Below, one piece after another: positions 8,722 to 58,983 of a DNA stretch of 64,000 nucleotides. A program made the translations under genes and the position numbers. The DNA lies in the IMG/VR virus record IMGVR_UViG_3300032312_001958; one strand, given 5' to 3'. Source of the DNA: a virus. Taxonomy: Duplodnaviria > Caudoviricetes. The notes below the pieces were generated by a model that saw nothing but the letters and a program-made list of their open reading frames with translations, made no database searches and had not been told where the DNA came from. Every line of letters begins with the position of its first letter. Position 1 is the first letter of the stretch.

Positions 8722-8728
8722 TATTTAT
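8722..8728 (+). promoter_or_regulatory. putative phage-specific (late) promoter motif TATTTAT, representative copy
   Basis: (A/G)TATTTAT recurs shortly upstream of starts at 8743, 12246, 17957, 21717, 32552, 35595, 36710, 37300, 43745, 50532, 52315, 52741, 54223, 55340, 57449, 59008, 60009, 61219, 63028 and, as ATAAATA(T/C), before minus-strand genes. Confidence 0.65.
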
Positions 8729-10798: not shown

Positions 10799-11506
10799 AT
10801 GGAATTAAACAAACTTCTTACCATAGTTATTCCTTGTAAAAACGAGGGAAAGACAATAGACCAAACATTAACTCTGTTAAATTTCCAAGAGGGAATTGAA
10901 TATGTTAGAGTTATTGTTGCTGATAACTCTGATGATGATTATACGACATATTATTTAGAGCAAAGAAACAGGGATTACTTTGACCTGAGAATAATACAGG
11001 GAGGGTTACCGTCCAAAGCAAGGAATAACGGGGCTGAACAATCTGAAACACCATACATTCTATTTTTAGATTCGGATATATTTTTGAATGACCCAAAGTT
11101 AATCAAAGGTTGTTTAGATAAAATGGTTAATGGGAGATTGGACTTGGTAACCTGTAAAGTTAGAAGTTCAACAGGTAAATACAATTATGTTTTCAGGGTA
11201 TTTGATTTAATCCAAATAGTTTTCAGATTAATTACACCATTTTGTTTAGGTGGGTTTATGATGGTCAGAACTTCAACTTTTAATAGAATTGGAGGTTTTG
11301 ATGAATCAGCCAAAGTTGCTGAGGATTATCTGTTTTCAAAACAAATAAAGACAAACAAGTTTAAAATTTATGACTCAGTTGTTTTAACACCACCAAGAAG
11401 ATTTGAAAACAAAGGACTTTGGTATATGACAAAGTTAATGATTGGTTCATTTTTAAATCGTAATAATAAAAGTTTTTTTGAAGATGGTCAAAATTATTGG
11501 GGATGA
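10799..11506 (+). CDS. glycosyltransferase family 2
   Basis: IVIPCKNE, ARNNGA, LFLDSD, GGFDE..AED. Confidence 0.9.
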   Translation: MELNKLLTIVIPCKNEGKTIDQTLTLLNFQEGIEYVRVIVADNSDDDYTTYYLEQRNRDYFDLRIIQGGLPSKARNNGAEQSETPYILFLDSDIFLNDPKLIKGCLDKMVNGRLDLVTCKVRSSTGKYNYVFRVFDLIQIVFRLITPFCLGGFMMVRTSTFNRIGGFDESAKVAEDYLFSKQIKTNKFKIYDSVVLTPPRRFENKGLWYMTKLMIGSFLNRNNKSFFEDGQNYWG

Positions 11507-12219
11507 ATAAGTATAAAACAATTATAATGAGTGATTTACATCTTGGAGCAAGACAATCACAAACAGATAAGATAATAGAATTCTTGGATAATAATACTTC
11601 TGATATATTAATATTAAATGGTGATATTATTGATGGGTGGGCACTTAAAGGTAACGGTAAATGGACACCAAATTGTACCAAAATATTCAGAAAATTTATG
11701 AAGATGTCAGAGAAAGGAACTAAGGTTATTTACATACGAGGTAATCACGATGATTTTTTAAAGGATTTTATCCCATTCAAATTAAATAACATAAGGATTG
11801 TTAGAAAATATGTATATGTTGGTATTGATGGTAGAACTTATTTTTGTTTTCACGGAGATGTTTTGGACTTTGTAATTATGGAGGCAAGGTGGTTAGCGGT
11901 GATTGGTGGATATTCTTACGATATTGTCATTAAGTTCAATACGTTTTATAATAAGGTACGAAAGTGGTTTAATTTACCATATCATTCTTTAGCGAATACA
12001 ATTAAACAATCTGTAAAAGGTGCAATTAACTTTGTATCTGATTTTGAGACAAATGCTAAAGCTCTTGCCAATCAAAAGGGATATGATGTTGCAGTATGTG
12101 GACATATCCACCAGCCAAAGATGGAAATTGATTATATGAATTCTGGGGATTTTTGTGAAAACTCAACATGTTTGGTTGAACATTTTGATGGAACATGGGA
12201 CATAATTAATATGTCCTAA
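11503..12219 (+). CDS. LpxH-like UDP-2,3-diacylglucosamine diphosphatase family phosphoesterase
   Basis: SDLHLG, NGDIID, GNHD, HGD, GHIH, NSGDF. Confidence 0.82.
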   Translation: MNKYKTIIMSDLHLGARQSQTDKIIEFLDNNTSDILILNGDIIDGWALKGNGKWTPNCTKIFRKFMKMSEKGTKVIYIRGNHDDFLKDFIPFKLNNIRIVRKYVYVGIDGRTYFCFHGDVLDFVIMEARWLAVIGGYSYDIVIKFNTFYNKVRKWFNLPYHSLANTIKQSVKGAINFVSDFETNAKALANQKGYDVAVCGHIHQPKMEIDYMNSGDFCENSTCLVEHFDGTWDIINMS

Positions 12220-12245
12220 TTAAAGTTTTATTATATTTATAAAAT

Positions 12246-13517
12246 ATGATAAAAAATACAAAAATCTATTTACTATTATTAATTATTATAATGTCTGTTT
12301 TCTTTGTCGTTAAAACGTCAGTTTTACTTGAAATTCAAGAATCAACAAGAGTTACAAGAGGACTTGAATATATTTGTTTTATTTTGTTAATTCCTATATC
12401 AATATTACTGATTAAAGACTTTATCAAATCTACTAAAAATTCAATATCTAAAGAATCAGTAGATAAGCTAATTAAATTAGAAAATGAACTCACTAATAGA
12501 ATGAACGCAATTAATAAATCTAATGCGGTTATTGAGTTTGATTTAGAAGGGAATATTGTTTTTGCTAATGATTTGTTTATGAAAACTATGGGATATCTTT
12601 CACACGATGATATAGTTGGAAAACATCACAGAATATTTGTAGAAAATGAATATGAAAAAAGTGAGGATTATTGTCTTTTTTGGGGAAAATTAAGAAGTGG
12701 TGTATTATTTTCAGGGGAAATTGTTAGAGTTAAAAAAGATAAATCTTTGGTTTATTTACAAGCTACTTACAATCCTATTTTTGATACTGATGGTAAGATT
12801 TATCGTGTTATGAAAATTGCAATAGATATTACCGACAAAGTTTTACAGTCAAAAGAGATAGAAAGAAAGAATACATACTTGGAACATGCCGCTAAGATAT
12901 TAAGACACGACATGCATTCAGGTATTAACACTTACATGCCAAGAGGTGTTAACTCATTAGAAAGAAGGTTAACTCAAGAAGATATTATTAATCTTAAAAT
13001 TGAGGCTCCACTTAAAATGATTAAGGAGGGACTTAAACATTCACAGAAAGTTTACAAAGGTGTTTATGAGTTTACCAATCTTGTTAAGAAAGATGTGGTA
13101 TTGAACAAAGAAGAATGTAACATCAAGGACATACTCAAGGACTATTTGTCCTCGACGGCTTACGCAAGTCAGGTAGTGTTGGATGATAACCTACCAACAA
13201 TTGAATTAAATGAACCATTATTCTGTACTGCGGTGGATAACCTAATTAGAAATGGTTTAAAGTATAACGATTCTGAAACAAAGTTTGTTAACATATATTC
13301 TGAAGATAATTCAATTTCCGTACAAGATAATGGTAGAGGTATCACTCAAGAAGATTTTAATTATTTATCAAAACCTTATACTAGAAAAGAAGGACAGAAA
13401 GAATCAGGAACTGGTTTGGGTCTTAACATCTGTGTTGCGATTCTTGAAGAACATGGGTTTGAAATTACTTGTGAGAAAAATAAAATTGGAACTAAAATGA
13501 AAATTAAAATAAAATGA
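12246..13517 (+). CDS. membrane PAS/PAC sensor histidine kinase
   Basis: 2 TM; PAS (AVIEFDLEG..ANDLF...ATYNPI..KIAIDIT); H-box RHDMHS; N-box NLIRNGLKYN; DNGRG; GTGLGL. Confidence 0.92.
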   Translation: MIKNTKIYLLLLIIIMSVFFVVKTSVLLEIQESTRVTRGLEYICFILLIPISILLIKDFIKSTKNSISKESVDKLIKLENELTNRMNAINKSNAVIEFDLEGNIVFANDLFMKTMGYLSHDDIVGKHHRIFVENEYEKSEDYCLFWGKLRSGVLFSGEIVRVKKDKSLVYLQATYNPIFDTDGKIYRVMKIAIDITDKVLQSKEIERKNTYLEHAAKILRHDMHSGINTYMPRGVNSLERRLTQEDIINLKIEAPLKMIKEGLKHSQKVYKGVYEFTNLVKKDVVLNKEECNIKDILKDYLSSTAYASQVVLDDNLPTIELNEPLFCTAVDNLIRNGLKYNDSETKFVNIYSEDNSISVQDNGRGITQEDFNYLSKPYTRKEGQKESGTGLGLNICVAILEEHGFEITCEKNKIGTKMKIKIK

Positions 13518-14158
13518 GAAAGGTATTATTAGTTTTATTATTTGTGTTATTTGGAATGTTGTCTTATTCACAGACAAAGTACCCAATTAAAACCATCTTC
13601 AGAGGAGATTCTGTTGTTATTTTAACAATTCAGCAATCTGATAACATTAATAAGATGATTGAGAAAAACTTAAAATTAATAAAAGATAATAATGCGAAAG
13701 TTCAGGAGTATGTGGGTAGAATTAAAGTACTTGAACAAGAGGCTAATAACCAAAACGCTTATATTGATAGTTTGTCTAACGCTCTATTAAAGTGTCGGAA
13801 TAGTGTAGAAGTGGTGCAGTATAATTCAGATACATTATTAAAACAATATGATGAATTAAACCTAACAATCTATGAAATGGCGGTTGGACCAACACTTCTA
13901 TATACATTACCCCCATATAAAGACGTTTTATTCTTAAATCTAAAACATTTCAATATGTTTATTGATTCCGATGGGTCATTAATTCTTGAACGTATGACTC
14001 CGGTTCAAATGAAAAAATATGATAAGTGGAGAGAGACATATGGAAATGAGTCTTTAATGTATATTGATTATCAAAAAGTAATTAGGTTCCGAAATTTCCA
14101 AGACGAATTACTTGAAAGAGTTATATGGAAAAATAAATTTAATTACGATAGTAAATGA
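13514..14158 (+). CDS. exported coiled-coil protein
   Basis: signal peptide then heptad-rich region; ATGA-coupled between the two kinases. Confidence 0.75.
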   Translation: MRKVLLVLLFVLFGMLSYSQTKYPIKTIFRGDSVVILTIQQSDNINKMIEKNLKLIKDNNAKVQEYVGRIKVLEQEANNQNAYIDSLSNALLKCRNSVEVVQYNSDTLLKQYDELNLTIYEMAVGPTLLYTLPPYKDVLFLNLKHFNMFIDSDGSLILERMTPVQMKKYDKWRETYGNESLMYIDYQKVIRFRNFQDELLERVIWKNKFNYDSK

Positions 14159-15474
14159 AAAGAATAATCATTGTTTTACTCACACTATTTTGTTTCATTA
14201 ATGTTAACGGACAAGATACTTTAATTGATGGAATTAACGCAAGTTGGATAGACCCTGAAACTCAAACAGACAGTATGGTTGTATCTGAAATGAGAATTAG
14301 GGATTTAATTCCTGATAAGATTATGCCAAGTTGGATTGAACCTGATAAAATATTTGACAACCCAAAAGAATTAAGTCAGGAAGATGTGGAACTTTTGGAA
14401 GCGGATATTAAATTTATGACTGACCTCCCACAAAGTTATGATGAGTTACCTAAAGAAGATTTACAGAAAGTATTAACTCAAATTGATAATAAGATTATTG
14501 AATTAAGACAAGAGATTGACAATTTAATTAAGGCGAGAGCCAACGAGGAACTTATTAAAACAAAGAAAGGGACATTAACTGGTCTAGAAAAAGAAAAGAA
14601 TATCATCAACTTAACATTAACAGGTGGTGAACTTAAAGATGCAAATGGTAATTTGATTGGTCAGAATGATGAGTTAAAGATACAACAGGATAAACTTAAA
14701 AAATATCTTTATATTGCTTTAAGTGGTTTGGCTTTACTTGGTTTAGTAGTTGCGGTTGTGTTACAAAGAAAAAGAATACAGGTTCAAGATGTTGAAATTG
14801 AAGAACAACTTAATGACATTGCCAAAAAGAATAGTTATTTGGAACACGCAGCAAGAATCATCAGACACGATATGCACTCCGGTATTAACACTTATATGCC
14901 AAGAGGTATTACCTCATTAGAAAAAAGATTAACCACTGAAGACATTCAAAGATTAAAGATTGAAGGGGCGTTAAAAATGGTTAAGGAAGGTTTAAATCAT
15001 ACACAAAGAGTATATAAGAGTGTCTATGAATTCACCAATCTTGTTAAACAAAATGTTGTATTGAATAAAACTTTGGTTGACCCTAAAGATTTGATATGGA
15101 AATATATTTCACCAAATTCTTATAGTTCACAAGTTGAGGTATCTGATTTAAGTGAGATGGAGGTTAACGAAACTTTATTCTGTAACGCGGTTGAAAACTT
15201 AATTAAGAATGGTTTGTCATATAATGATAGTGAAGTTAAAAAAGTTAAAATATATAACGAAGAAGAATATTTAATAGTTGAGGACAACGGTAGAGGATTC
15301 TCACAAAAAGATTTTGAAAAACATTTAACGAAATATTCAAAAAAGGCAGATGTCACTGGTGATGAGAAAGGTCTTGGGTTGAATATATGTGTTGCGATAT
15401 TAGAAGAACATGGTTTCAAATTAACTTGTGAGAAAACTGAAAGTGGAACCAAAATGAAAATAAAAATAAAATAA
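14155..15474 (+). CDS. sensor histidine kinase with exported coiled-coil domain
   Basis: signal peptide, helical region, TM, RHDMHSGINTYMPRG, NLIKNG, DNGRG, KGLGL. Confidence 0.9.
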   Translation: MKRIIIVLLTLFCFINVNGQDTLIDGINASWIDPETQTDSMVVSEMRIRDLIPDKIMPSWIEPDKIFDNPKELSQEDVELLEADIKFMTDLPQSYDELPKEDLQKVLTQIDNKIIELRQEIDNLIKARANEELIKTKKGTLTGLEKEKNIINLTLTGGELKDANGNLIGQNDELKIQQDKLKKYLYIALSGLALLGLVVAVVLQRKRIQVQDVEIEEQLNDIAKKNSYLEHAARIIRHDMHSGINTYMPRGITSLEKRLTTEDIQRLKIEGALKMVKEGLNHTQRVYKSVYEFTNLVKQNVVLNKTLVDPKDLIWKYISPNSYSSQVEVSDLSEMEVNETLFCNAVENLIKNGLSYNDSEVKKVKIYNEEEYLIVEDNGRGFSQKDFEKHLTKYSKKADVTGDEKGLGLNICVAILEEHGFKLTCEKTESGTKMKIKIK

Positions 15475-15489
15475 AAGAGAAAGAAAAAA

Positions 15490-15921
15490 ATGATTGATTC
15501 AATCTTATTAGTGGATGACGAGGATTTATTCCACTTGGTTTTTGAGGACAGTTGCTCCTTGTTAGACATTACATTGTCATTAAAGAGTTTAAACAGCTCA
15601 GACGAAGCTGCTAAATTATTTGCCGATTGGCAGAAGAAATCTGACGGAAAACCTGAATGTGTGTTTGTTGATTTAAATATTATAGGTTCGTCATTTGATG
15701 GTATTGAACTTATCCGTAAGGTTAACTTTGAATATGGTAACCACGTAGTGATTGGTATTATATCTTCAAGTAATGAACCTGAAGAACAAGCTAAAGCGGT
15801 TCAGGCGGGAGCTCAGTTTTGGATTATTAAGTCCGATGATATTGAACCAAGATTGGAAGAATTCAAAAAAGATTACGAAGGATATAAAAACAGAACCGCA
15901 CCATTCAAAGTTTATAAATGA
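15490..15921 (+). CDS. single-domain response regulator (receiver)
   Basis: LLVDDE, FVDLN, DGIEL, ISSS, GAQFWIIK; no output domain. Confidence 0.9.
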   Translation: MIDSILLVDDEDLFHLVFEDSCSLLDITLSLKSLNSSDEAAKLFADWQKKSDGKPECVFVDLNIIGSSFDGIELIRKVNFEYGNHVVIGIISSSNEPEEQAKAVQAGAQFWIIKSDDIEPRLEEFKKDYEGYKNRTAPFKVYK

Positions 15922-16604
15922 TTGTTTTAGATAAAGATACAAAGAAGATATTAATTGAAACTTTGAAGACCAAGAACATTGGTCTTGAAGGTAACATTAC
16001 TAAATTAATAGACGCTCAAAATGATGAAGAGTTTAAAGAGTATCTTAAAACTTGTATTGAAAAAGATGTATCATCAAGACGGAAACGTTTAGAGATAACT
16101 AAACAAGTTCAGGTTCAGAACAAAGATTTAACCACACTCAACGAGGAAAACCAAAGAATGATGGAAGAACTTCAAAAAACATTAAAAAATGTTGAGGAGT
16201 CAAAACTAACATTTGAAGTTCAAAACAGAGAACTAAATGAATGGAAACAGGAGAATTTAAGATTGACAGATGAGCTCCAACAGGAAATGGTTAAATCAGA
16301 ACAGGCAAGAATAACTGCGGAAAATGCTAAAAACGAAGCGGAAAACAATTTAGATTTAATTCAAAAGAAAACTCAATTTGAGTTGATTAACAATATTGTT
16401 AGAGTTGCTCTTTATGTAATCATTGGTGTTGGAACCATAACTACTGGAATATATGTTTATTCTATGACAATAGGGATGGATACAGACATCATCGGTTCCA
16501 CTTGGAGTAATATGTTTGGTATCCTGTTAACAAACAGTTTCAGTATAGTGGGAACAATACTTGGGGTGAAGTATGGTGCGAGTCCTAACAAAGAAGATAA
16601 ATAA
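15918..16604 (+). CDS. coiled-coil protein with two C-terminal TM helices
   Basis: long E/Q/K heptads then two hydrophobic helices. Confidence 0.75.
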   Translation: MIVLDKDTKKILIETLKTKNIGLEGNITKLIDAQNDEEFKEYLKTCIEKDVSSRRKRLEITKQVQVQNKDLTTLNEENQRMMEELQKTLKNVEESKLTFEVQNRELNEWKQENLRLTDELQQEMVKSEQARITAENAKNEAENNLDLIQKKTQFELINNIVRVALYVIIGVGTITTGIYVYSMTIGMDTDIIGSTWSNMFGILLTNSFSIVGTILGVKYGASPNKEDK

Positions 16605-16622
16605 AAAATAAAAATAAAAAAA

Positions 16623-17159
16623 ATGAGTAGATTAAAAAAAATGTTATTTGGAGAAACACCTTACGTTAAGGTGGAAGATAAAAATCGTTTCTATTATATG
16701 TTGCAACAAATGCAATCAAATAGATGGAAAATTACAGGGATTATTTTATTCTTGTTTTTTTTCATAATTTTTGGTATCAATATGGCAGTTATGTTCCAAG
16801 TTGAGATTGCTGAAAATTGGAAAGAAATGTTGTTGATTTTATTTGGAGCCTTTGTAGGTAACTTGAATAAGGTTGTTGACTATTGGTTCAACTCTGAAGA
16901 TAGAGATAAGATGTTAATCCAAAAGGTTGATGAAGAAGACGGAAGTAGTTTATCAAATGTAAGTGAATTCCCAACAACTCCAAAACCACCACAAGAACCA
17001 ATTATTATTGTAAGACAAGAACCAACACCTGAACCAGTTGTTGAGGAACCACTACCATATGTTGAACCTGAAGTATACAACGAGGAACCACTACCATATG
17101 AAGAACCTTTAGCGGATGATGGATATGAAACTCCACCATCTGAAGAAGAAAATATTTAA
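16623..17159 (+). CDS. two-TM protein with Pro/Glu-rich tail
   Basis: two TM helices, VVDYWF, EEPLPY repeated twice. Confidence 0.75.
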   Translation: MSRLKKMLFGETPYVKVEDKNRFYYMLQQMQSNRWKITGIILFLFFFIIFGINMAVMFQVEIAENWKEMLLILFGAFVGNLNKVVDYWFNSEDRDKMLIQKVDEEDGSSLSNVSEFPTTPKPPQEPIIIVRQEPTPEPVVEEPLPYVEPEVYNEEPLPYEEPLADDGYETPPSEEENI

Positions 17160-17168
17160 AAAAAAAAG

Positions 17169-17196
17169 AAACCCGGTTTGATTGACCGGGTTTTTT
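17169..17196 (+). terminator. intrinsic terminator ending the two-component operon
   Basis: AAACCCGGT...ACCGGGTTTTTT. Confidence 0.8.
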
Positions 17197-17789: not shown

Positions 17790-17956
17790 GTTCCCAAATG
17801 AAAGTAACCCATTTGAAATTAAGTTAGATATGGATGAGTTTCATCCTGAAAAAGATTTTGGTGATGAACTATTTGGGGTTTGGAGAAGTGTATATATTTC
17901 GGTAAAAAAGTAATACTTAAACTTTATTTACAATATTTATTGTAAAATTAAAGCTT

Positions 17957-18793
17957 ATGTTACTAAAAGTAGGGTCTCAAGGAGATGACGTTAAAAAACT
18001 CCAAGCGAAATTAGGATTAACTGCCGATGGAATATTCGGTAATGGTACAGCTACCAAAGTAAAAGAATGGCAAGCGGCTAATGGTTTAACTGCTGATGGC
18101 ATTGTTGGTGAAGGTACATGGGGTAAAATGTTTGGGGCAACGACCCAACAATCTCAGGTAATAAAAGAAGATGTTGTAATTCCTGTTAGTTCAGAATTTA
18201 AATTACAGAATTTAAAGGGTCATATTCCTGACGCAGTAATTGCTCAAATTCCTGATACTGCTAAAAAATTCAACATTACTAACCCATTAAGATTGGCTCA
18301 TTTCTTAGCTCAGTGTGGTCATGAGTCAGGTGGATTTAAGGCGGTACAAGAGAATTTAAATTATTCTGCGGATGGACTTAAAAAAATCTTTGGTAAGTAT
18401 TTTCCTGGAAATTTAAATGAATCATACGCAAGACAACCTGAAAAGATTGCATCTCGTGTTTATGGTGGAAGAATGGGTAATGGTGATGAATCAACCGGTG
18501 AAGGATTTAAATTTCGTGGCAGAGGTTACATCCAATTAACTGGAAAGTCAAACTATACAAACTTCGCAAAATTCATTGGTGAGGATACAGTATCTAATCC
18601 TGATTTAGTTGCTACCAAATATCCATTGGCTTCTGCGGCATTTTTCTTTGACTCGAACAAACTTTGGTCTATTTGCGATAAGGGTGCGGATGATGCCACA
18701 GTAACTGCGGTAACTAAAAGAGTTAATGGAGGTACAATTGGATTACCTGATAGAATTAAACACTTCAAAGAATATTACAATTTATTAAAATGA
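17957..18793 (+). CDS. endolysin: peptidoglycan-binding domain + GH19 catalytic domain
   Basis: LKVGS.G.DVK.LQ..L..ADG.FG; HFLAQCGHESGGF, ENLNYS, FRGRGYIQLTG, VNGG..G..DR. Confidence 0.92.
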   Translation: MLLKVGSQGDDVKKLQAKLGLTADGIFGNGTATKVKEWQAANGLTADGIVGEGTWGKMFGATTQQSQVIKEDVVIPVSSEFKLQNLKGHIPDAVIAQIPDTAKKFNITNPLRLAHFLAQCGHESGGFKAVQENLNYSADGLKKIFGKYFPGNLNESYARQPEKIASRVYGGRMGNGDESTGEGFKFRGRGYIQLTGKSNYTNFAKFIGEDTVSNPDLVATKYPLASAAFFFDSNKLWSICDKGADDATVTAVTKRVNGGTIGLPDRIKHFKEYYNLLK

Positions 18794-19092
18794 GAAAATT
18801 TATACAAAATAAAATTGCCGATATTAAGAAGTTTTCTTTCTCTGAGATGACATCAAACTCAAACGGAAAAACATCTGGAAGTGGAACTATGGGTATCTAT
18901 ATAACTGCGATAGGTGGTGTTTGTTTCTTAATGGGATGTGTTGATAAAATGTTTTTAAATAAAGATATTGATGTTATAACACAGTCAATAATCTTCACAG
19001 GTATCGGAGCAACTCTTTTAGGGTACAGAAAATCAAAAGATAATACTGAAGTAATTGTAAAAGAAGAATCAAATGAAGAAATCATTAATTAA
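18790..19092 (+). CDS. putative holin
   Basis: two TM helices, charged tail, coupled to endolysin stop. Confidence 0.55.
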   Translation: MRKFIQNKIADIKKFSFSEMTSNSNGKTSGSGTMGIYITAIGGVCFLMGCVDKMFLNKDIDVITQSIIFTGIGATLLGYRKSKDNTEVIVKEESNEEIIN

Positions 19093-19399
19093 ATATTGGA
19101 AAGAAATAACTATTGGAATAGTTTTTATTTCTATGTTGGTCACTATTATTGTTTTATTTAATAAACCACAAGTTACTGTAACTATTGAAGACACTAAGAG
19201 AATTGAGATGTTAAGAGACTCAGTTAATGTTTTAAACAGACAGATGAGTGATTTAAGAGTTGCTTATGATAATAAACAAGGTGAAGTAATCACCAAAATT
19301 AAATACATTAAAGAAGAAAATGCTAAAGAAATTAGTAATCTTGGCAAGCTTAATCTTGTTCAACGTGACAGCGTTTGGTCAAGTTTTGAAGCCCCATAG
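19073..19399 (+). CDS. putative inner-membrane spanin-like protein
   Basis: N-terminal TM + coiled coil; position after endolysin/holin. Confidence 0.5.
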   Translation: MKKSLIKYWKEITIGIVFISMLVTIIVLFNKPQVTVTIEDTKRIEMLRDSVNVLNRQMSDLRVAYDNKQGEVITKIKYIKEENAKEISNLGKLNLVQRDSVWSSFEAP

Positions 19400-19760
19400 A
19401 ATTGTATATGAAGGTGACACAGGAGTGTTCTTCAATAAAAAACAAGAGTTACTGTTGTTAACCATTATTAAAACTGAAAAGTCCCAAAAGAAAGAGATTG
19501 AACAGTTATATATTTACAAAAATAATTGTGATGACCAACTATTAAAAGAACAAAAACATTCTGAGGACTTAAATCGTGCGTTTACAAGTATGGAAACAGA
19601 GGCTAAAACACAAAGAGACAAGTACCAAGAAGAGGTTGTCAAACATACTGAGACTAAAATGAAACTTGAAAAACAAGAAGGTAAAGTAAAAACCTTTAGA
19701 AACATTGCAATTGCTGAGGGTATTGGTTTAATTGGTATACTTTTTTTAGTTTTACGTTGA
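19320..19760 (+). CDS. exported coiled-coil protein with hydrophobic C-terminus (spanin-partner-like)
   Basis: signal peptide; overlaps the previous gene by 80 nt. Confidence 0.5.
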   Translation: MLKKLVILASLILFNVTAFGQVLKPHRIVYEGDTGVFFNKKQELLLLTIIKTEKSQKKEIEQLYIYKNNCDDQLLKEQKHSEDLNRAFTSMETEAKTQRDKYQEEVVKHTETKMKLEKQEGKVKTFRNIAIAEGIGLIGILFLVLR

Positions 19761-19792: not shown

Positions 19793-20770
19793 ATGAAAAT
19801 TTTAGTAACAGGTGGACTCGGTTTTATCGGGTCCAATTTTTTTAATCATATGAAAGAAAAATACCCAAACTATGAGTTGGTTATTTTAGATTCTGAAACA
19901 TATGCGTCAGATAAGAAAAATATTAAAGACCATTTTAGAACTAGAATTATAAGTTTTGATATTCTTGAAAGGGACAGACTATTCAAGTTTTTTGAAAATT
20001 ATAAATTTGATGTTGTGGTACATTTTGCGGCTGAATCACATGTAGATAATTCAATTAGTAATCCATTAAAATTTGTTAATACAAATATTGTTGGTACTAT
20101 AAATTTATTAGATGCTTCATTGAAAAATAACATTAAATTATTTTATCACATATCGACTGATGAAGTTTTTGGGCATCTTGGACCGACAGGTTCATTTGAT
20201 GAAAAAACATCCTACGACCCAAGAAGTCCATACTCAGCTTCAAAAGCATCGTCTGACCATTTTGTTAGGGCTTATTACCATACGTATAATTTACCGGTTA
20301 TCATTTCGAATTGTTCAAACAATTATGGACCAAATCAACATGATGAAAAATTCATACCTACTGTCATTAAAAAAGTATTGAAAGGGGAAAACATTCCAAT
20401 ATATGGTAATGGAACAAATGTTAGAGATTGGTTATTTGTAATGGACCATGTTGATGCTATTGATAGAATATTACATAATGGTAAAATTGGTGAAACTTAC
20501 TGTGTTGGCGGTGATAATGAAATAAGTAATATTAGATTAGCTAAAATAATTTGTGATAAAATTGATAATTTAAAAGATTGGGGACAAAATTCTCATGAGT
20601 TAATTACTTTTGTTGAAGATAGGAAAGGACATGATTTTAGGTACTCAATAGATTATTCAAAGTTAAAAAAGACACTTGCTTGGGAACCAAAAACTAATTT
20701 TAGTGATGGAATTGATATTACCATAGATTATTATGTTAAAAAATTTGGTGAAGAAAAAAATTTGAACTAA
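19793..20770 (+). CDS. rfbB: dTDP-glucose 4,6-dehydratase
   Basis: GGLGFIG, HFAAESHVD, STDEV, YSASK, NCSNNYGP, DRKGHD.RY. Confidence 0.95.
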   Translation: MKILVTGGLGFIGSNFFNHMKEKYPNYELVILDSETYASDKKNIKDHFRTRIISFDILERDRLFKFFENYKFDVVVHFAAESHVDNSISNPLKFVNTNIVGTINLLDASLKNNIKLFYHISTDEVFGHLGPTGSFDEKTSYDPRSPYSASKASSDHFVRAYYHTYNLPVIISNCSNNYGPNQHDEKFIPTVIKKVLKGENIPIYGNGTNVRDWLFVMDHVDAIDRILHNGKIGETYCVGGDNEISNIRLAKIICDKIDNLKDWGQNSHELITFVEDRKGHDFRYSIDYSKLKKTLAWEPKTNFSDGIDITIDYYVKKFGEEKNLN

Positions 20771-23123: not shown

Positions 23124-24428
23124 ATGAAAAACATTAAAATGATAATACCACGATTCGGTAATTTCACCAATGGATATTATGACATTAGAGGTATTATGTG
23201 GTTAGGTCGTCTAAATGGCATATGTACACGCTCAGACTACAACAATATAATTGAAGTCGGTAAATGGGTATGTTTACCAGAATACCATTTGAAAAAAGAT
23301 AAACAACCACAATTTTATAAATTAGAAATCATGGAACAAATAAATGTAAAAAATAATACCTTGGATAAACAATATCAAACATTACTCCAAACCATTTTAG
23401 ATTTTGGGGTGGAGAAGAAAGACCGAACTGGTACAGGAACCAAATCAATTTTTGGTTATACCATTCGTCATAATATGAAAGATGGATTTCCACTTCTTAC
23501 AACCAAGAAGATGGCTTGGAAAACTATGGTAACTGAATTACTATGGTTTTTAAGAGGTGATACCAACATCAAGTACCTTGTTGATAACAATTGTCATATT
23601 TGGGATGGTGATGCGTATAAGAGGTATTCGGTTATTGCTGGAGTATCAACCCAAGTTGAGACATTAACACAAGAAGAATTCATAAACAAAATCAAAACAG
23701 ATGATGAGTTTGCTTATAAGTGGGGTGATTTAGGTCCTGTGTATGGTGCACAATGGAGAAGTTGGCATTGGAGAAGTGAACCATTCCTACCAGAAGAAAA
23801 GGATATGATTTATACAACCGAAGATAAACCAGTAACTTGGTCAAAAGAAAAGTATATAGACCAAATCGCAAACCTAATCAACGACCTTAAAACAAACCCA
23901 GACTCAAGAAGAATGATGGTGAACTGCTGGAATGTAGGAGAACTGAACAAGATGGTGCTGCCACCTTGTCATTATGGATTTCAAGTTTATACAAGAGAGT
24001 TGAGTTTGGAGGAAAGATATGAGTTGATGAAAAAATTAGATAACTGGGTGTCAGTTCATTACAAAGAACCTAAAACAATGGAATATATGGATAAACATAA
24101 TATCCCAACCAGAGCAATCTCTTTAATGTGGAACCAAAGGTCGTGTGACGTTTTACTCGGAATCCCATTCAACATTGCTTCTTACGGGTTATTATTATTG
24201 ATGATTGCTGACGAAGTGAATATGGTTCCTGACGAATTGATTGGAAACTTAGGTGATACTCACATTTACCTAAATCATATTGAACAAGCGAAAGAACAGA
24301 TTGGTAGAGAACCATACGACTTACCAAAGGTTAGTGTTAGAGATGGTATCCATTGTTCATCTATTAATGATGTTATTTTGGAAAACTACCAATCACACCC
24401 ATCAATTAAAGCACCATTAAGTAATTAA
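23124..24428 (+). CDS. thyA: thymidylate synthase (core probably starts at 23331)
   Basis: DRTGTGT, FPLLTTK, ELLWFL, LGPVYG.QWR, LPPCH, QRSCD..LG.PFN.ASY, GD.HIY.NH. Confidence 0.95.
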   Translation: MKNIKMIIPRFGNFTNGYYDIRGIMWLGRLNGICTRSDYNNIIEVGKWVCLPEYHLKKDKQPQFYKLEIMEQINVKNNTLDKQYQTLLQTILDFGVEKKDRTGTGTKSIFGYTIRHNMKDGFPLLTTKKMAWKTMVTELLWFLRGDTNIKYLVDNNCHIWDGDAYKRYSVIAGVSTQVETLTQEEFINKIKTDDEFAYKWGDLGPVYGAQWRSWHWRSEPFLPEEKDMIYTTEDKPVTWSKEKYIDQIANLINDLKTNPDSRRMMVNCWNVGELNKMVLPPCHYGFQVYTRELSLEERYELMKKLDNWVSVHYKEPKTMEYMDKHNIPTRAISLMWNQRSCDVLLGIPFNIASYGLLLLMIADEVNMVPDELIGNLGDTHIYLNHIEQAKEQIGREPYDLPKVSVRDGIHCSSINDVILENYQSHPSIKAPLSN

Positions 24429-31470: not shown

Positions 31471-31520
31471 AATATGATAAATATACTTTAAAGTTAATTA
31501 ATTTATTGTTAATATTGGGT

Positions 31521-32528
31521 ATGATTAATTATGCGGATGTAATTGTGGACCTTCAGGCGGGGGACACAGGGAAAGGTAAGGTATGTAATACTTTAAGTCA
31601 AACCCCAAATGAATATACACATGTTGTAAGATATAATGGAGGTGGAAATGCGGGTCACACTATATATAAAAAAGGTAAAAAGATAGTAACTCATTTTATT
31701 CCATCAGGAATTGTGAATGGTGTTAAGTCAATTATTGGACCAGGTTGTGTTGTTAACCCAATTAGTTTATTCCACGAGATTCAACAACTTGAGGCGAGTG
31801 GAATTGAAGTTATGGGTAATTTGTTTATTGATAAACGAGCTCACATTATTCGACCTGAACACACAACCGAGGACTCCAAAGACCAAGAGATTGGAACGAC
31901 TAAAACAGGTAATGGACCTGCATATCGTGATAAGTATTATCGTAAGGGAGTTAGAGTTGAACAAGCGGAATTACTTGAACAATATGTTTGTGATATCTAT
32001 GAGGAATTCCATGGTAAAGATGAGGTGAAGATTTTATTTGAAGGAGCTCAAGGATTTGAATTGGATATTGATTGGGGTGATTATCCTTACGTTACATCAT
32101 CTCATTGTACAGTAGGTAGTGCAGTTCTTAATGGAGTTCCACCCCAAAGAATTAGAAAGGTTTATGGAGTTTGTAAAGCATATAATACATATGTTGGGGC
32201 AAAACAATTTGAAGGACCTACTAAAATATTTGAAAAAATTAGGGAGGTGGGTAATGAATACGGTTCAACTACAGGAAGACCAAGACAAATTGGTTGGACT
32301 AATTTAGATGACTTAATTAGAGCTGCAAATATTAATGGAGTTACTAACTTAGTTGTAAATAAGGTTGATGTACTTGAGAAGGTAGGGACATTTATGTTAA
32401 TATATAAAAAACAATTAATAAGTTTTGTACATAAAGAATTCTTCAAAATATTTTTTGAAAACAACATTAAACAGAATTGTCCTTTGGTTAGAGAAATAAT
32501 CTTTTCGGAAAGTGCTGAAACAATCTAA
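31521..32528 (+). CDS. purA: adenylosuccinate synthetase (short form)
   Basis: Q.GDTGKGK, GGGNAGHT, IGTT..GNGPAY, FEGAQG..LD.DWG.YP.VTSS, GSTTGRPR, NKVD. Confidence 0.9.
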   Translation: MINYADVIVDLQAGDTGKGKVCNTLSQTPNEYTHVVRYNGGGNAGHTIYKKGKKIVTHFIPSGIVNGVKSIIGPGCVVNPISLFHEIQQLEASGIEVMGNLFIDKRAHIIRPEHTTEDSKDQEIGTTKTGNGPAYRDKYYRKGVRVEQAELLEQYVCDIYEEFHGKDEVKILFEGAQGFELDIDWGDYPYVTSSHCTVGSAVLNGVPPQRIRKVYGVCKAYNTYVGAKQFEGPTKIFEKIREVGNEYGSTTGRPRQIGWTNLDDLIRAANINGVTNLVVNKVDVLEKVGTFMLIYKKQLISFVHKEFFKIFFENNIKQNCPLVREIIFSESAETI

Positions 32529-57448: not shown

Positions 57449-57874
57449 ATGAAAATTTCTTTACACGAAAACATTGGGAGAATTAAGTCATTATTATATG
57501 TTAATGAACAAGCCGGCTCCGCACCTTGTAAACAACCCAACCAGATAAAAACAACTTCAGGTGAGACCGAACTCATGGGATATATTTTAGATGTTCTTGA
57601 TGATAACAATATAAATTTAAAAAATTGTAAAGATAAAAAATGTATTGATGATAAAATGTTGGCTGAAAAAATTATAAGTGAGTTACTTAACTCTTTAGTT
57701 GATAAAAGAGATTTGGGTACTGAGTTAAGTTCTGAGAACAAAAGAAATTTTGACTACTACACTAAAATAATGAGAGGGATATTCCCGACGTATAATAAAG
57801 CTCACTATAATAGAGGCACATGCGCCATGAAATCAAAAGTTAGTAAAACAACTACAACAACATATTATAAATGA
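57449..57874 (+). CDS. hypothetical protein with LxENIxRIKSLL leader
   Basis: MKISLHENIGRIKSLLYVNEQ. Confidence 0.65.
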   Translation: MKISLHENIGRIKSLLYVNEQAGSAPCKQPNQIKTTSGETELMGYILDVLDDNNINLKNCKDKKCIDDKMLAEKIISELLNSLVDKRDLGTELSSENKRNFDYYTKIMRGIFPTYNKAHYNRGTCAMKSKVSKTTTTTYYK

Positions 57875-58983
57875 TTATGAGAACAAATTTATTTGAAATT
57901 AGTCAAGACGAAAAAAACAGAATTTTAAACCTTCATGAAGGTCACACAAAAAATCATTATTTAAATTTAATTAATGAAGAATCAACGTACAATCCTAAGT
58001 CAGAAGCAATTCAAAAAAAATTAAGTGAATTAGGTTACGGTAAAATTATTGGAAGTGCTGATGGTAAATACGGACAAAAAACAGCTTGTGCGGTTGCTAA
58101 ATTCCAAGAGGATAACAAATTAACCGTTGATGGTAAAGTTGGTAACGTAACTGCTACAAAACTTGGGGTTGATGCTTATTTTCCTAAAGGTGTTAGTATT
58201 ATTTCTTGTGGTACCAAAAATACTGACAATAAACAAAAAGTGACTGATGACTCAGGTAAACAAAATTGTAAGTCAGTTTTACCTGAAACATGTTCAAAAA
58301 TTAGTCCAAATAAGGAAACTACTATTGGTAATGGTGGAAGTGAGGGTTGTTCACAATATGTTGGACTGTCTATAGGTGAAAAATTAGGTGACGCTTGGAA
58401 AGCCTTTAACGCGGCTAAAAAATACGGAGTTAAATATAATATGTTTACAGACGGTTCAATTGATTGGAATAATGTAAGGAACAAAATGAAATCCAATAAA
58501 ATAAATTCATCAACTTGTGGTTGTTTTACTGAGGAAGGTGAAAGTAAAGATAAATCTTGTAGTTCAGGTTCTGAGATTGCCAAAACTATTAGTTCATTTT
58601 ATCCATCATCGTCTAATTTCAGTAATGGTTCGTTGAAAGTAGGTGATATAGTTGGTATGTATTACAGAGATTCAGGAAACAAAGGTAAAGCGTTTTGTGA
58701 AAGAGTTTTACAAAGAGGATTAGATGGTAGTGGTAATGTTAAAGATACTGACCCATTTACATTTAATACTCACGTTGGATATGTTGGAGCTATTAAAAAT
58801 GGTGTGCCAATAATTTATCATAGTGTGCACGGAACAAGATTAGCAACACCAGCAAACCAATTAAAAAGTAAAAACGGTAGTGCGATGATTGTTTGGGTAA
58901 CAGGTGGACCTCAAAGTGGGTCAGAAAATAAATCAAATCCTTTTGATTTATTTAATGATTTTAAAAATTTTTTAAAAAAATAA
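57871..58983 (+). CDS. peptidoglycan-binding domain + probable Cys/His (NlpC/P60-like) hydrolase, with leader
   Basis: IQKKL..LGY..ADG.YG..T..AV..FQ..N.L.VDG.VG..T; GCSQYV, LKVGDIVG, THVG, IYHS. Confidence 0.7.
   Translation: MIMRTNLFEISQDEKNRILNLHEGHTKNHYLNLINEESTYNPKSEAIQKKLSELGYGKIIGSADGKYGQKTACAVAKFQEDNKLTVDGKVGNVTATKLGVDAYFPKGVSIISCGTKNTDNKQKVTDDSGKQNCKSVLPETCSKISPNKETTIGNGGSEGCSQYVGLSIGEKLGDAWKAFNAAKKYGVKYNMFTDGSIDWNNVRNKMKSNKINSSTCGCFTEEGESKDKSCSSGSEIAKTISSFYPSSSNFSNGSLKVGDIVGMYYRDSGNKGKAFCERVLQRGLDGSGNVKDTDPFTFNTHVGYVGAIKNGVPIIYHSVHGTRLATPANQLKSKNGSAMIVWVTGGPQSGSENKSNPFDLFNDFKNFLKK

Follow-up and report, generated by a model that had tools for sequence, protein, structure and literature searches.

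For a lytic phage, the main decision of its life history is when to lyse the host, and to our knowledge the only well-understood control that makes it depend on a signal is lysis inhibition, as found in the T-even phages and ICP1, which works without general sensory machinery. In T4 (holin T, antiholins RI and RIII) and in ICP1 (TeaA/ArrA) lysis is timed by a sensed signal (PMC11413866, PMC7182436), through protein contact with a membrane lysis protein and not through transcription. Neither phage uses a kinase or a receiver for this purpose, since the antiholin itself reads the periplasmic signal. Here we describe a six-gene two-component operon at positions 12246-17196 of a 64,000-nt stretch of DNA (hereafter the window; IMG/VR record IMGVR_UViG_3300032312_001958) from an uncultured giant freshwater phage, for which we propose a similar contact with lysis proteins. 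Unlike in T4 and ICP1, the input would arrive by His-Asp phosphotransfer or, in other phages, through PAS or GAF domains fused on the cytoplasmic side, and the membrane protein concerned, P5, is unrelated to the T4 and ICP1 proteins. We suggest a branched two-component pathway with a flavin-type PAS input and a periplasmic input, which would gate a lysis-regulating transmembrane (TM) hairpin by protein contact; this account we hold to be on the probable side, with considerable reserve.

Cellular systems offer partial parallels. In staphylococci and Bacillus, the two-component system LytSR is tied to the holin- and antiholin-like proteins LrgAB/CidAB and to lysis; LytR is, however, a DNA-binding regulator of lrgAB transcription, whereas the receiver of the phage operon (RR) has no DNA-binding domain and is gene-coupled to its membrane partner. 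Single-domain receivers that act by contact are likewise familiar, as with CheY on FliM and Caulobacter DivK with DivL, PleC and DivJ, where the targets are a motor or a kinase; in the phage, by contrast, the target would be the TM hairpin of P5, approached through a small N-terminal head that is predicted to be an undescribed docking family. A search of the literature, including jumbo-phage surveys, returned no description of this system, which is not proof that it is unpublished. The operon comprises the following elements:

12234-12240, + strand: promoter-like motif (A/G)TATTTAT, 5 nt 5' of the HK1 ATG
12246-13517, + strand: HK1, membrane-anchored PAS histidine kinase with two TM helices; predicted phospho-His, His221
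13514-14158, + strand: P2, accessory exported protein with a coiled coil; translational coupling to both kinases
14155-15474, + strand: HK2, histidine kinase whose signal-anchor and second TM helix enclose a periplasmic helical stalk; phospho-His predicted at His238
15490-15921, + strand: RR, stand-alone receiver of 143 aa; predicted phospho-acceptor, Asp61
15918-16604, + strand: P5, 228 aa, with head, coiled-coil stalk, and juxtamembrane segment plus TM hairpin
16623-17159, + strand: P6, two TM helices followed by a C-terminal tail that is acidic and rich in proline; accessory gene restricted to the lineage
17166-17196, + strand: intrinsic terminator at the end of the operon, flanked by A and T runs

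The six genes, all on the + strand, are separated by -4, -4, +15, -4 and +18 nt in order, with the start codon of P5 overlapping the stop codon of RR. The terminator hairpin folds with a dG of -18.4 kcal/mol (z -5.0; none of 200 shuffles folded equally well) and was recovered by a separate terminator scan too. An initial annotation had described six coupled reading frames with a TATTTAT motif in front and a terminator behind, and all of these were found in their places; its description of a phage-borne, apparently intact two-component set, in which two kinases carry different sensing parts, is also supported. The phosphorelay that it envisaged has to be given up, as two kinases and one receiver make a branched two-component pathway and not a His-Asp-His-Asp relay. 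The two proteins with two TM helices that close the operon also need to be told apart: P5 is a conserved partner of the system, whereas P6 (TM helices at 40-56 and 69-85; a single weak PHROGs match, phrog_38564) occurs in the closest relatives only (loci L004-L025).

The evidence that carries the proposal begins with the coupling of RR to P5. Across 77 related IMG/VR loci the gene order HK1 - [P2 - HK2] - RR - P5 is invariant, and by this comparison HK-RR-P5 is the invariant core, with P2 and HK2 as an accessory branch. In 67 of 67 loci RR is directly followed by P5, spaced by -3 to +6 nt, and genomes and loci without the P5 head are also without RR. Within RR, residues D9, D10, D61, S92-94, F110, W111 and K114 are invariant in 39 sequences; the mean column identity of 86% is far over that of the other genes, and the family counts more than 3,800 relatives at 90% clustering. 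As had been noted at the outset, the receiver has no DNA-binding domain. Another output domain is absent as well: Response_reg is the sole Pfam assignment (33.3 bits against a cut-off of 30.2 bits), and RR very probably works by protein contact. Rare natural HK-RR fusions, in effect hybrid kinases (P0271, P0272 and P0273, one of them on a 190-kb contig), confirm the predicted standing of the kinases and RR as a cognate pair. Along with the fixed linkage of the genes they give indirect support to the predicted phosphotransfer. A natural RR-P5 fusion was looked for among the longer proteins, which yielded HK-RR fusions only.

The alignment of P5 resolves into a conserved head (residues 1-75), a coiled coil of varying length and a conserved juxtamembrane segment, which together with the TM hairpin occupies residues ~140-220. 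In an AlphaFold2 model (pLDDT 83.5) a small helical head is followed by an unbroken helix (37-185) that runs on into TM1, from which a tight hairpin turn leads to TM2. TM2 hardly varies between relatives and has many Gly, Thr, Ser and Asn residues, features that speak for a specific contact within the membrane and against simple anchoring. P5 is an orphan viral family: an exhaustive profile search of 1.84 billion proteins returned 263 clusters, and the nearest atlas clusters are all viral. A fold search against the PDB gave no match with E below 3.9, and the P5 profile met coiled-coil noise only among PDB sequences.

Natural variants take the two halves of P5 apart. In one, a PAS or PAS-PAS unit is fused to the hairpin half without kinase core, receiver or head; the PAS of these fusions is 54% identical to that of HK1, and the PAS-PAS-hairpin form is present on 281 IMG/VR stretches, with contigs of up to 272 kb. 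In another, a GAF domain is fused to the hairpin half. In a third, a coiled coil joins the head to a kinase of the canonical HisKA + HATPase_c type, the gene for which lies directly 3' of that for a 143-aa receiver with 65-72% identity to the RR of the window; the cascade with this head-kinase also begins with a kinase bearing the identical atypical RHDMH box. The head has the same invariant residues in P5 and in the Bacteroidota kinase, where it is placed on the phospho-His helix, the usual position of a sensor domain. Because the same head comes after RR-like receivers in phage P5 and in the Bacteroidota kinase, our conclusion from these arrangements is that the head would accompany the receiver whatever the output; the hairpin, correspondingly, would serve as the output of cytoplasmic sensors, of whichever kind the input is. 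Each of the whole genomes has a single hairpin gene, and the trio form (HK, RR and P5) and the fusion form are mutually exclusive, with one RR in each trio genome and none in the fusion genome. Short matches resembling stand-alone hairpin proteins of ~100 aa look like fragments, frame errors or chimeras, and two further candidates, P0197 (head with FecCD) and P0132 (head with an RpoC-like piece), look like chimeric assemblies.

The three-gene Bacteroidota cascade (kinase, 143-aa receiver, head-kinase) was seen at L169:179-2523 and L172:3088-6463. It appears to be an undescribed receiver-to-kinase relay, and the receiver with its head-kinase parallels DivK acting on kinases. One of the contigs also encodes a type IX secretion system (T9SS) cargo gene and can therefore be taken as Bacteroidota chromosomal DNA. 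The head was not found in 401 Bacteroidota genomes searched; the cellular form was seen on metagenome contigs only.

On the input side, HK1 has TM helices at 6-22 and 40-56, one PAS domain (PAS_9/PAS_3) and a HATPase_c domain, and HK2 has TM helices at 1-17 (the signal-anchor) and 187-203, with ~170 periplasmic residues between them, and HATPase_c (Pfam; 59 and 47 bits for the two kinases, cut-off 26.4 bits). The kinase core aligns over ~190 residues to HK853 (PDB 2c2a/3dge, E 2e-9), with which it shares the dimerization and histidine phosphotransfer (DHp) plus catalytic (CA) layout, the His and the N, G1 and G2 boxes all being in place (NGLKYN, DNGRG and GxGLGL in the kinase alignments). The RHDMH of the phage kinases falls opposite the SHELR of HK853, which designates His221 of HK1 and His238 of HK2 as the predicted phospho-acceptors. 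Unlike in HK853, the H-box of both kinases is divergent (RHDMHSGIN) and stays under the threshold of the Pfam HisKA model, which gave no match to either at E <= 0.1; NCBIfam equivalog cut-offs were not reached by the kinases. As the H-box aligns to HK853 and Pfam HisKA is silent, we classify HK1 and HK2 as divergent class I HisKA-type kinases.

The unusual H-box that the two kinases had been said to share is confirmed, and their cores are 62% identical over 223 residues. The accompanying idea of a local duplication with different sensors stands in one half: the sensor parts are without similarity, but in a tree of 93 kinase cores the HK1-type and HK2-type sequences are apart across the whole phage clade, so that the duplication is ancient and clade-wide rather than local. 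For the PAS of HK1, the nearest solved relatives, at low identity, are flavin adenine dinucleotide (FAD)-binding PAS domains, those of MmoS (3ewk, E 3e-10), NifL (2gj3, E 3e-8) and Aer (8dik, E 6e-5); light-oxygen-voltage (LOV) domains match it more weakly, and the NifL model of NCBIfam matches the PAS part of HK1 with E 1e-12. Given this closeness to FAD-binding domains, a redox or energy state is a fair inference for the signal of HK1, flavin binding being predicted only. The output of the PAS domain differs from that of its solved relatives, a phage kinase taking this place in HK1 and the hairpin in the fusion forms.

In the alignment of HK2 relatives the periplasmic stalk is conserved and the N-terminal part is variable. 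Many relatives (e.g., L041:2423-3187) have a TPR-like insertion, CREIGxAFYNxGxYDxADWYL, together with a WDQGVPxCP motif in the periplasmic domain. The window copy of HK2 has neither of these common elements, by which the periplasmic sensor is judged to evolve fast. Orphan HK2-like kinases without a nearby RR or P5 are found in other jumbo phages (L026, L027, L033 and G408); in the last of these, a 385-kb genome that is 95% complete, RR and P5 were found nowhere. P2 has a signal peptide (4-20) and a coiled coil (32-96), matched no family in Pfam, PHROGs or NCBIfam, and was detected together with HK2 in 22 unique relatives. A relationship between P2 and the periplasmic domain of HK2 was considered and dropped, there being no significant profile match.

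The connection to lysis comes from the gene neighbourhoods. The neighbours of 105 unique hairpin genes were clustered, and counts were restricted to genes with at least six neighbours. For the fusion form (n=53), a lysin is present within four genes on either side in 47 cases, and a lysin or a holin-like gene in 51; for the trio form (n=43), the corresponding numbers are 20 and 25. Four lysin families are represented (GH19, PG_binding_1 with an endolysin domain, Peptidase_M15_3 and GH24 lysozyme), and the other neighbours include a Phage_holin_4_1 holin (cluster c6), a family of 85-90 aa with two TM helices (c3/c20) and spanin-like genes. Around the trio, the GH19 gene takes three arrangements: upstream in divergent orientation (at 18-90 bp), upstream in the same orientation, or downstream of P5 at a distance of 11-25 bp. 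The distance between P5 and the lysin is 11-90 bp in many relatives and 1.35 kb in the window. At the GAF-hairpin locus, the next genes encode a protein with two TM helices, a TM/coiled-coil protein and a lipoprotein, and then GH19 and glucosaminidase. A linkage to lysis in related phages, the lack of which had been named as a refuting outcome, is thus kept despite gene rearrangement and exchange of the lysin type. In the window, the lysis cassette consists of:

17934-17940, + strand: second TATTTAT copy, 16 nt 5' of the endolysin ATG
17957-18793, + strand: endolysin (PG_binding_1 + GH19 by Pfam; phrog_181 endolysin, E 7e-68), without signal peptide
18790-19092, + strand: L2, 100 aa, with two TM helices (35-51, 62-78), its gene overlapping the stop codon of the lysin; resembles a holin in position and topology only
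19073-19399, + strand: L3, protein with an N-terminal TM helix; resembles a spanin in position and topology only
19320-19760, + strand: L4, with signal peptide, coiled coil and C-terminal TM helix

No match was obtained for P5, P6 or L2 among the holin families of Pfam, PHROGs and NCBIfam, nor for L2 among PHROGs families at large; a relationship of P6 or L2 to the holin-like clusters c3/c20 was rejected in the absence of a significant profile match. P2 is not a duplicate of the spanin-like L4 either, their similarity being confined to the first 40 residues; the two proteins have the signal peptide and ~20 following residues in common (hhalign probability 96.8%, 40 columns), which may be a shared export or anchoring motif. 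Sugar and envelope enzymes flank the signalling and lysis region (10799-12219 and 19793-20770), namely a GT2 glycosyltransferase, a metallophosphoesterase and a dTDP-glucose 4,6-dehydratase, the last with a match of 400 bits, over its cut-off.

Sequence and comparison show that the catalytic residues are intact, that the genes of RR and P5 are coupled in a fixed manner, that P5 is modular and that its hairpin keeps company with lysis genes; what we infer are phosphotransfer, docking of RR on the head, the kind of signal that is read, and an effect on lysis together with its direction. The pathway could then run as follows. HK1, tethered to the inner membrane, would read a cytoplasmic signal through its flavin-type PAS, probably redox or energy state, and HK2 would read a periplasmic or envelope signal through its stalk, probably with the exported P2. 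Both kinases would autophosphorylate at the His of the RHDMH box, and the one RR would receive the phosphate from either of them at Asp61. Phospho-RR, having no output domain, would dock on the small helical head of P5, and because an unbroken helix joins head and hairpin, docking would be expected to alter the packing or the oligomeric state of the hairpin. The hairpin would act on the lysis machinery, more likely by regulating or triggering a separate holin (as an antiholin-like or depolarising element) than as the sole holin, and the GH19 endolysin would be released earlier or later as a result. In this way the phage would probably let the condition of its host cell decide when lysis occurs.

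Extended to the relatives, the proposal is that a large, worldwide clade of freshwater jumbo phages has a lysis clock set by a His-Asp pathway or by fused PAS/GAF sensors, either of which would switch a holin-gating TM hairpin, with the head borrowed from a Bacteroidota receiver-to-kinase cascade; we offer this wider claim tentatively and would put it slightly short of an even chance. If true, this would be the first lysis switch of any virus to be controlled by phosphorylation. By it, or by sensor-hairpin fusions, abundant giant phages of lake bacteria would turn what they sense of the host, its redox or energy state and its envelope, into a decision on lysis, with consequences for burst size, for the dynamics of phages and hosts in lakes and for the question why jumbo phages carry "cellular" signalling genes. 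Two new protein modules would be added, a predicted receiver-docking head and a sensor-driven TM hairpin. The natural domain swaps make the hypothesis testable with few constructs, and could supply parts for signal-controlled lysis in synthetic biology.

Several observations weigh against a role in lysis, and some of them are equally what would be expected if the pathway steered another membrane process, such as superinfection exclusion, membrane potential or transport, or the anchoring of a replication or assembly structure, with the position near lysis genes due to no more than a common cluster of late or envelope-directed genes. About half of the trio-form loci have no recognisable lysin within four genes. 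In the window, the operon ends in its own terminator and the endolysin starts 798 nt past the stop codon of P6, and with this terminator and three small genes between them the operon and the lysin are separate transcription units. Searches of Pfam, PHROGs and NCBIfam matched P5 to no family of holins or antiholins, P5 has no structural relative, and the flanks of the window operon are the envelope and sugar enzymes named above. The lysis genes of large phages often stand among other membrane or late genes, where adjacency may mean shared timing or location; the expectation for a random gene, ~5% in a phage of ~400 genes, is a rough estimate and not a measured background; and separate holin-like genes adjoin the hairpin genes, so that the hairpin is not needed to explain lysis. 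The fusion-form hairpin is nonetheless inside lysis cassettes in 51 of 53 cases, and since it keeps this place while the lysin family changes, general clustering is hard to invoke; we therefore regard a membrane role away from lysis as unlikely, although it is the strongest of the competitors.

The separate holin-like genes bear on what the hairpin would do as well as on whether it is needed. P5 could itself be the main holin, large and regulated like T4 gpt, with the receiver directly licensing hole formation, which is a sub-case of our preferred explanation that differs in the role of the hairpin only. Its location 11-25 bp upstream of the endolysin in many relatives is the classical holin position, and the hairpin has a Gly/Ser/Thr-rich face; however, small separate holin-like genes with two to four TM helices stand beside hairpin genes, one of them in a Pfam holin family, and in the window L2 comes straight after the lysin. 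As separate holin-like genes are usually present, a predicted function as holin regulator or trigger is more likely than one as sole holin, and we consider the main-holin version distinctly improbable. A last possibility moves the target out of the phage: the kinases and receiver would mainly act on host signalling, by phosphorylating host regulators or draining phosphate from host kinases, and P5 would be a mere membrane tether. The orphan HK2-like kinases fit such a role, as do closest cellular relatives in the Bacteroidota, the likely host phylum, but the strict RR-P5 coupling points to a self-contained pathway, the extreme joint conservation of RR and the P5 head speaks in the same direction, and the sensor-hairpin fusions bypass kinase and receiver alike. 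A host-directed function is in our view the least probable of these alternatives, and very improbable in absolute terms.

That the system belongs to phages is indicated by its company and its distribution. The window encodes phage-type genes (ThyA-type thymidylate synthase, RNA ligase, HNH endonuclease and endolysins); its nearest record is an IMG/VR contig with proteins 97-99% identical, and the INPHARED phage records gave no DNA or protein match, so that no cultured or deposited relative was found. Carriers of the module include genomes of 272-385 kb (CheckV 91-97% complete), each with a T4-type large terminase, and the trio is also found on contigs of 42, 48 and 67% GC. The initial annotation had set against itself the prospect of an operon residing mainly in bacterial chromosomes without lysis genes. 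Among 185,579 species genomes, the hairpin occurs on 8 contigs of metagenome-assembled genomes of scattered taxonomy, phage-like where assessable; by this survey the module is essentially absent from cellular genomes and is a viral system.

The endolysin had been seen as starting about 800 nt after the operon behind the same promoter motif. Distance and motif copy are both as described, but the motif cannot serve as a specific tie. Over the window there are 53 copies of TATTTAT against 54.5 expected by chance, of which 31 fall into the 40-nt stretches that precede gene starts on the strand of the motif; together these stretches amount to 3.4% of the sequence. This crowding upstream of genes indicates that (A/G)TATTTAT, the consensus, is a genuine but general signal, a single-element, promoter-like gene-front element used genome-wide; as it fronts 31 of 110 genes (28%), it does not specifically tie the kinase operon to the lysin. 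The spacing from motif to ATG falls into two classes, 4-7 nt or 13-17 nt, and no -35-like element was found beside the copies of the window. It looks like a single-element phage promoter giving leaderless or very short-leader mRNAs. Copies stand, for example, at 8722, 10788, 32538, 36698, 52302 and 61207, and the motif frequently comes straight after a terminator.

Further genes of the window were noted in passing. A second protein with a peptidoglycan-binding domain (57871-58983; endolysin PHROGs, SleB-like N-terminus) is encoded far from the lysis cassette, its C-terminal 270 residues being without assignment. The gene at 31506-32528 encodes a short (340 aa) adenylosuccinate-synthase-like protein, for which PurA models score highest and yet remain under their cut-offs; an assignment to PurZ, which would imply a 2-aminoadenine genome, is not made, as the PurZ model scores 125.6 bits against a cut-off of 300 and the PurA models score higher. 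The ThyA-type thymidylate synthase (23124-24428) has an N-terminal extension of ~80 residues and an internal insertion, and could be a variant of the pyrimidine hydroxymethylase type.

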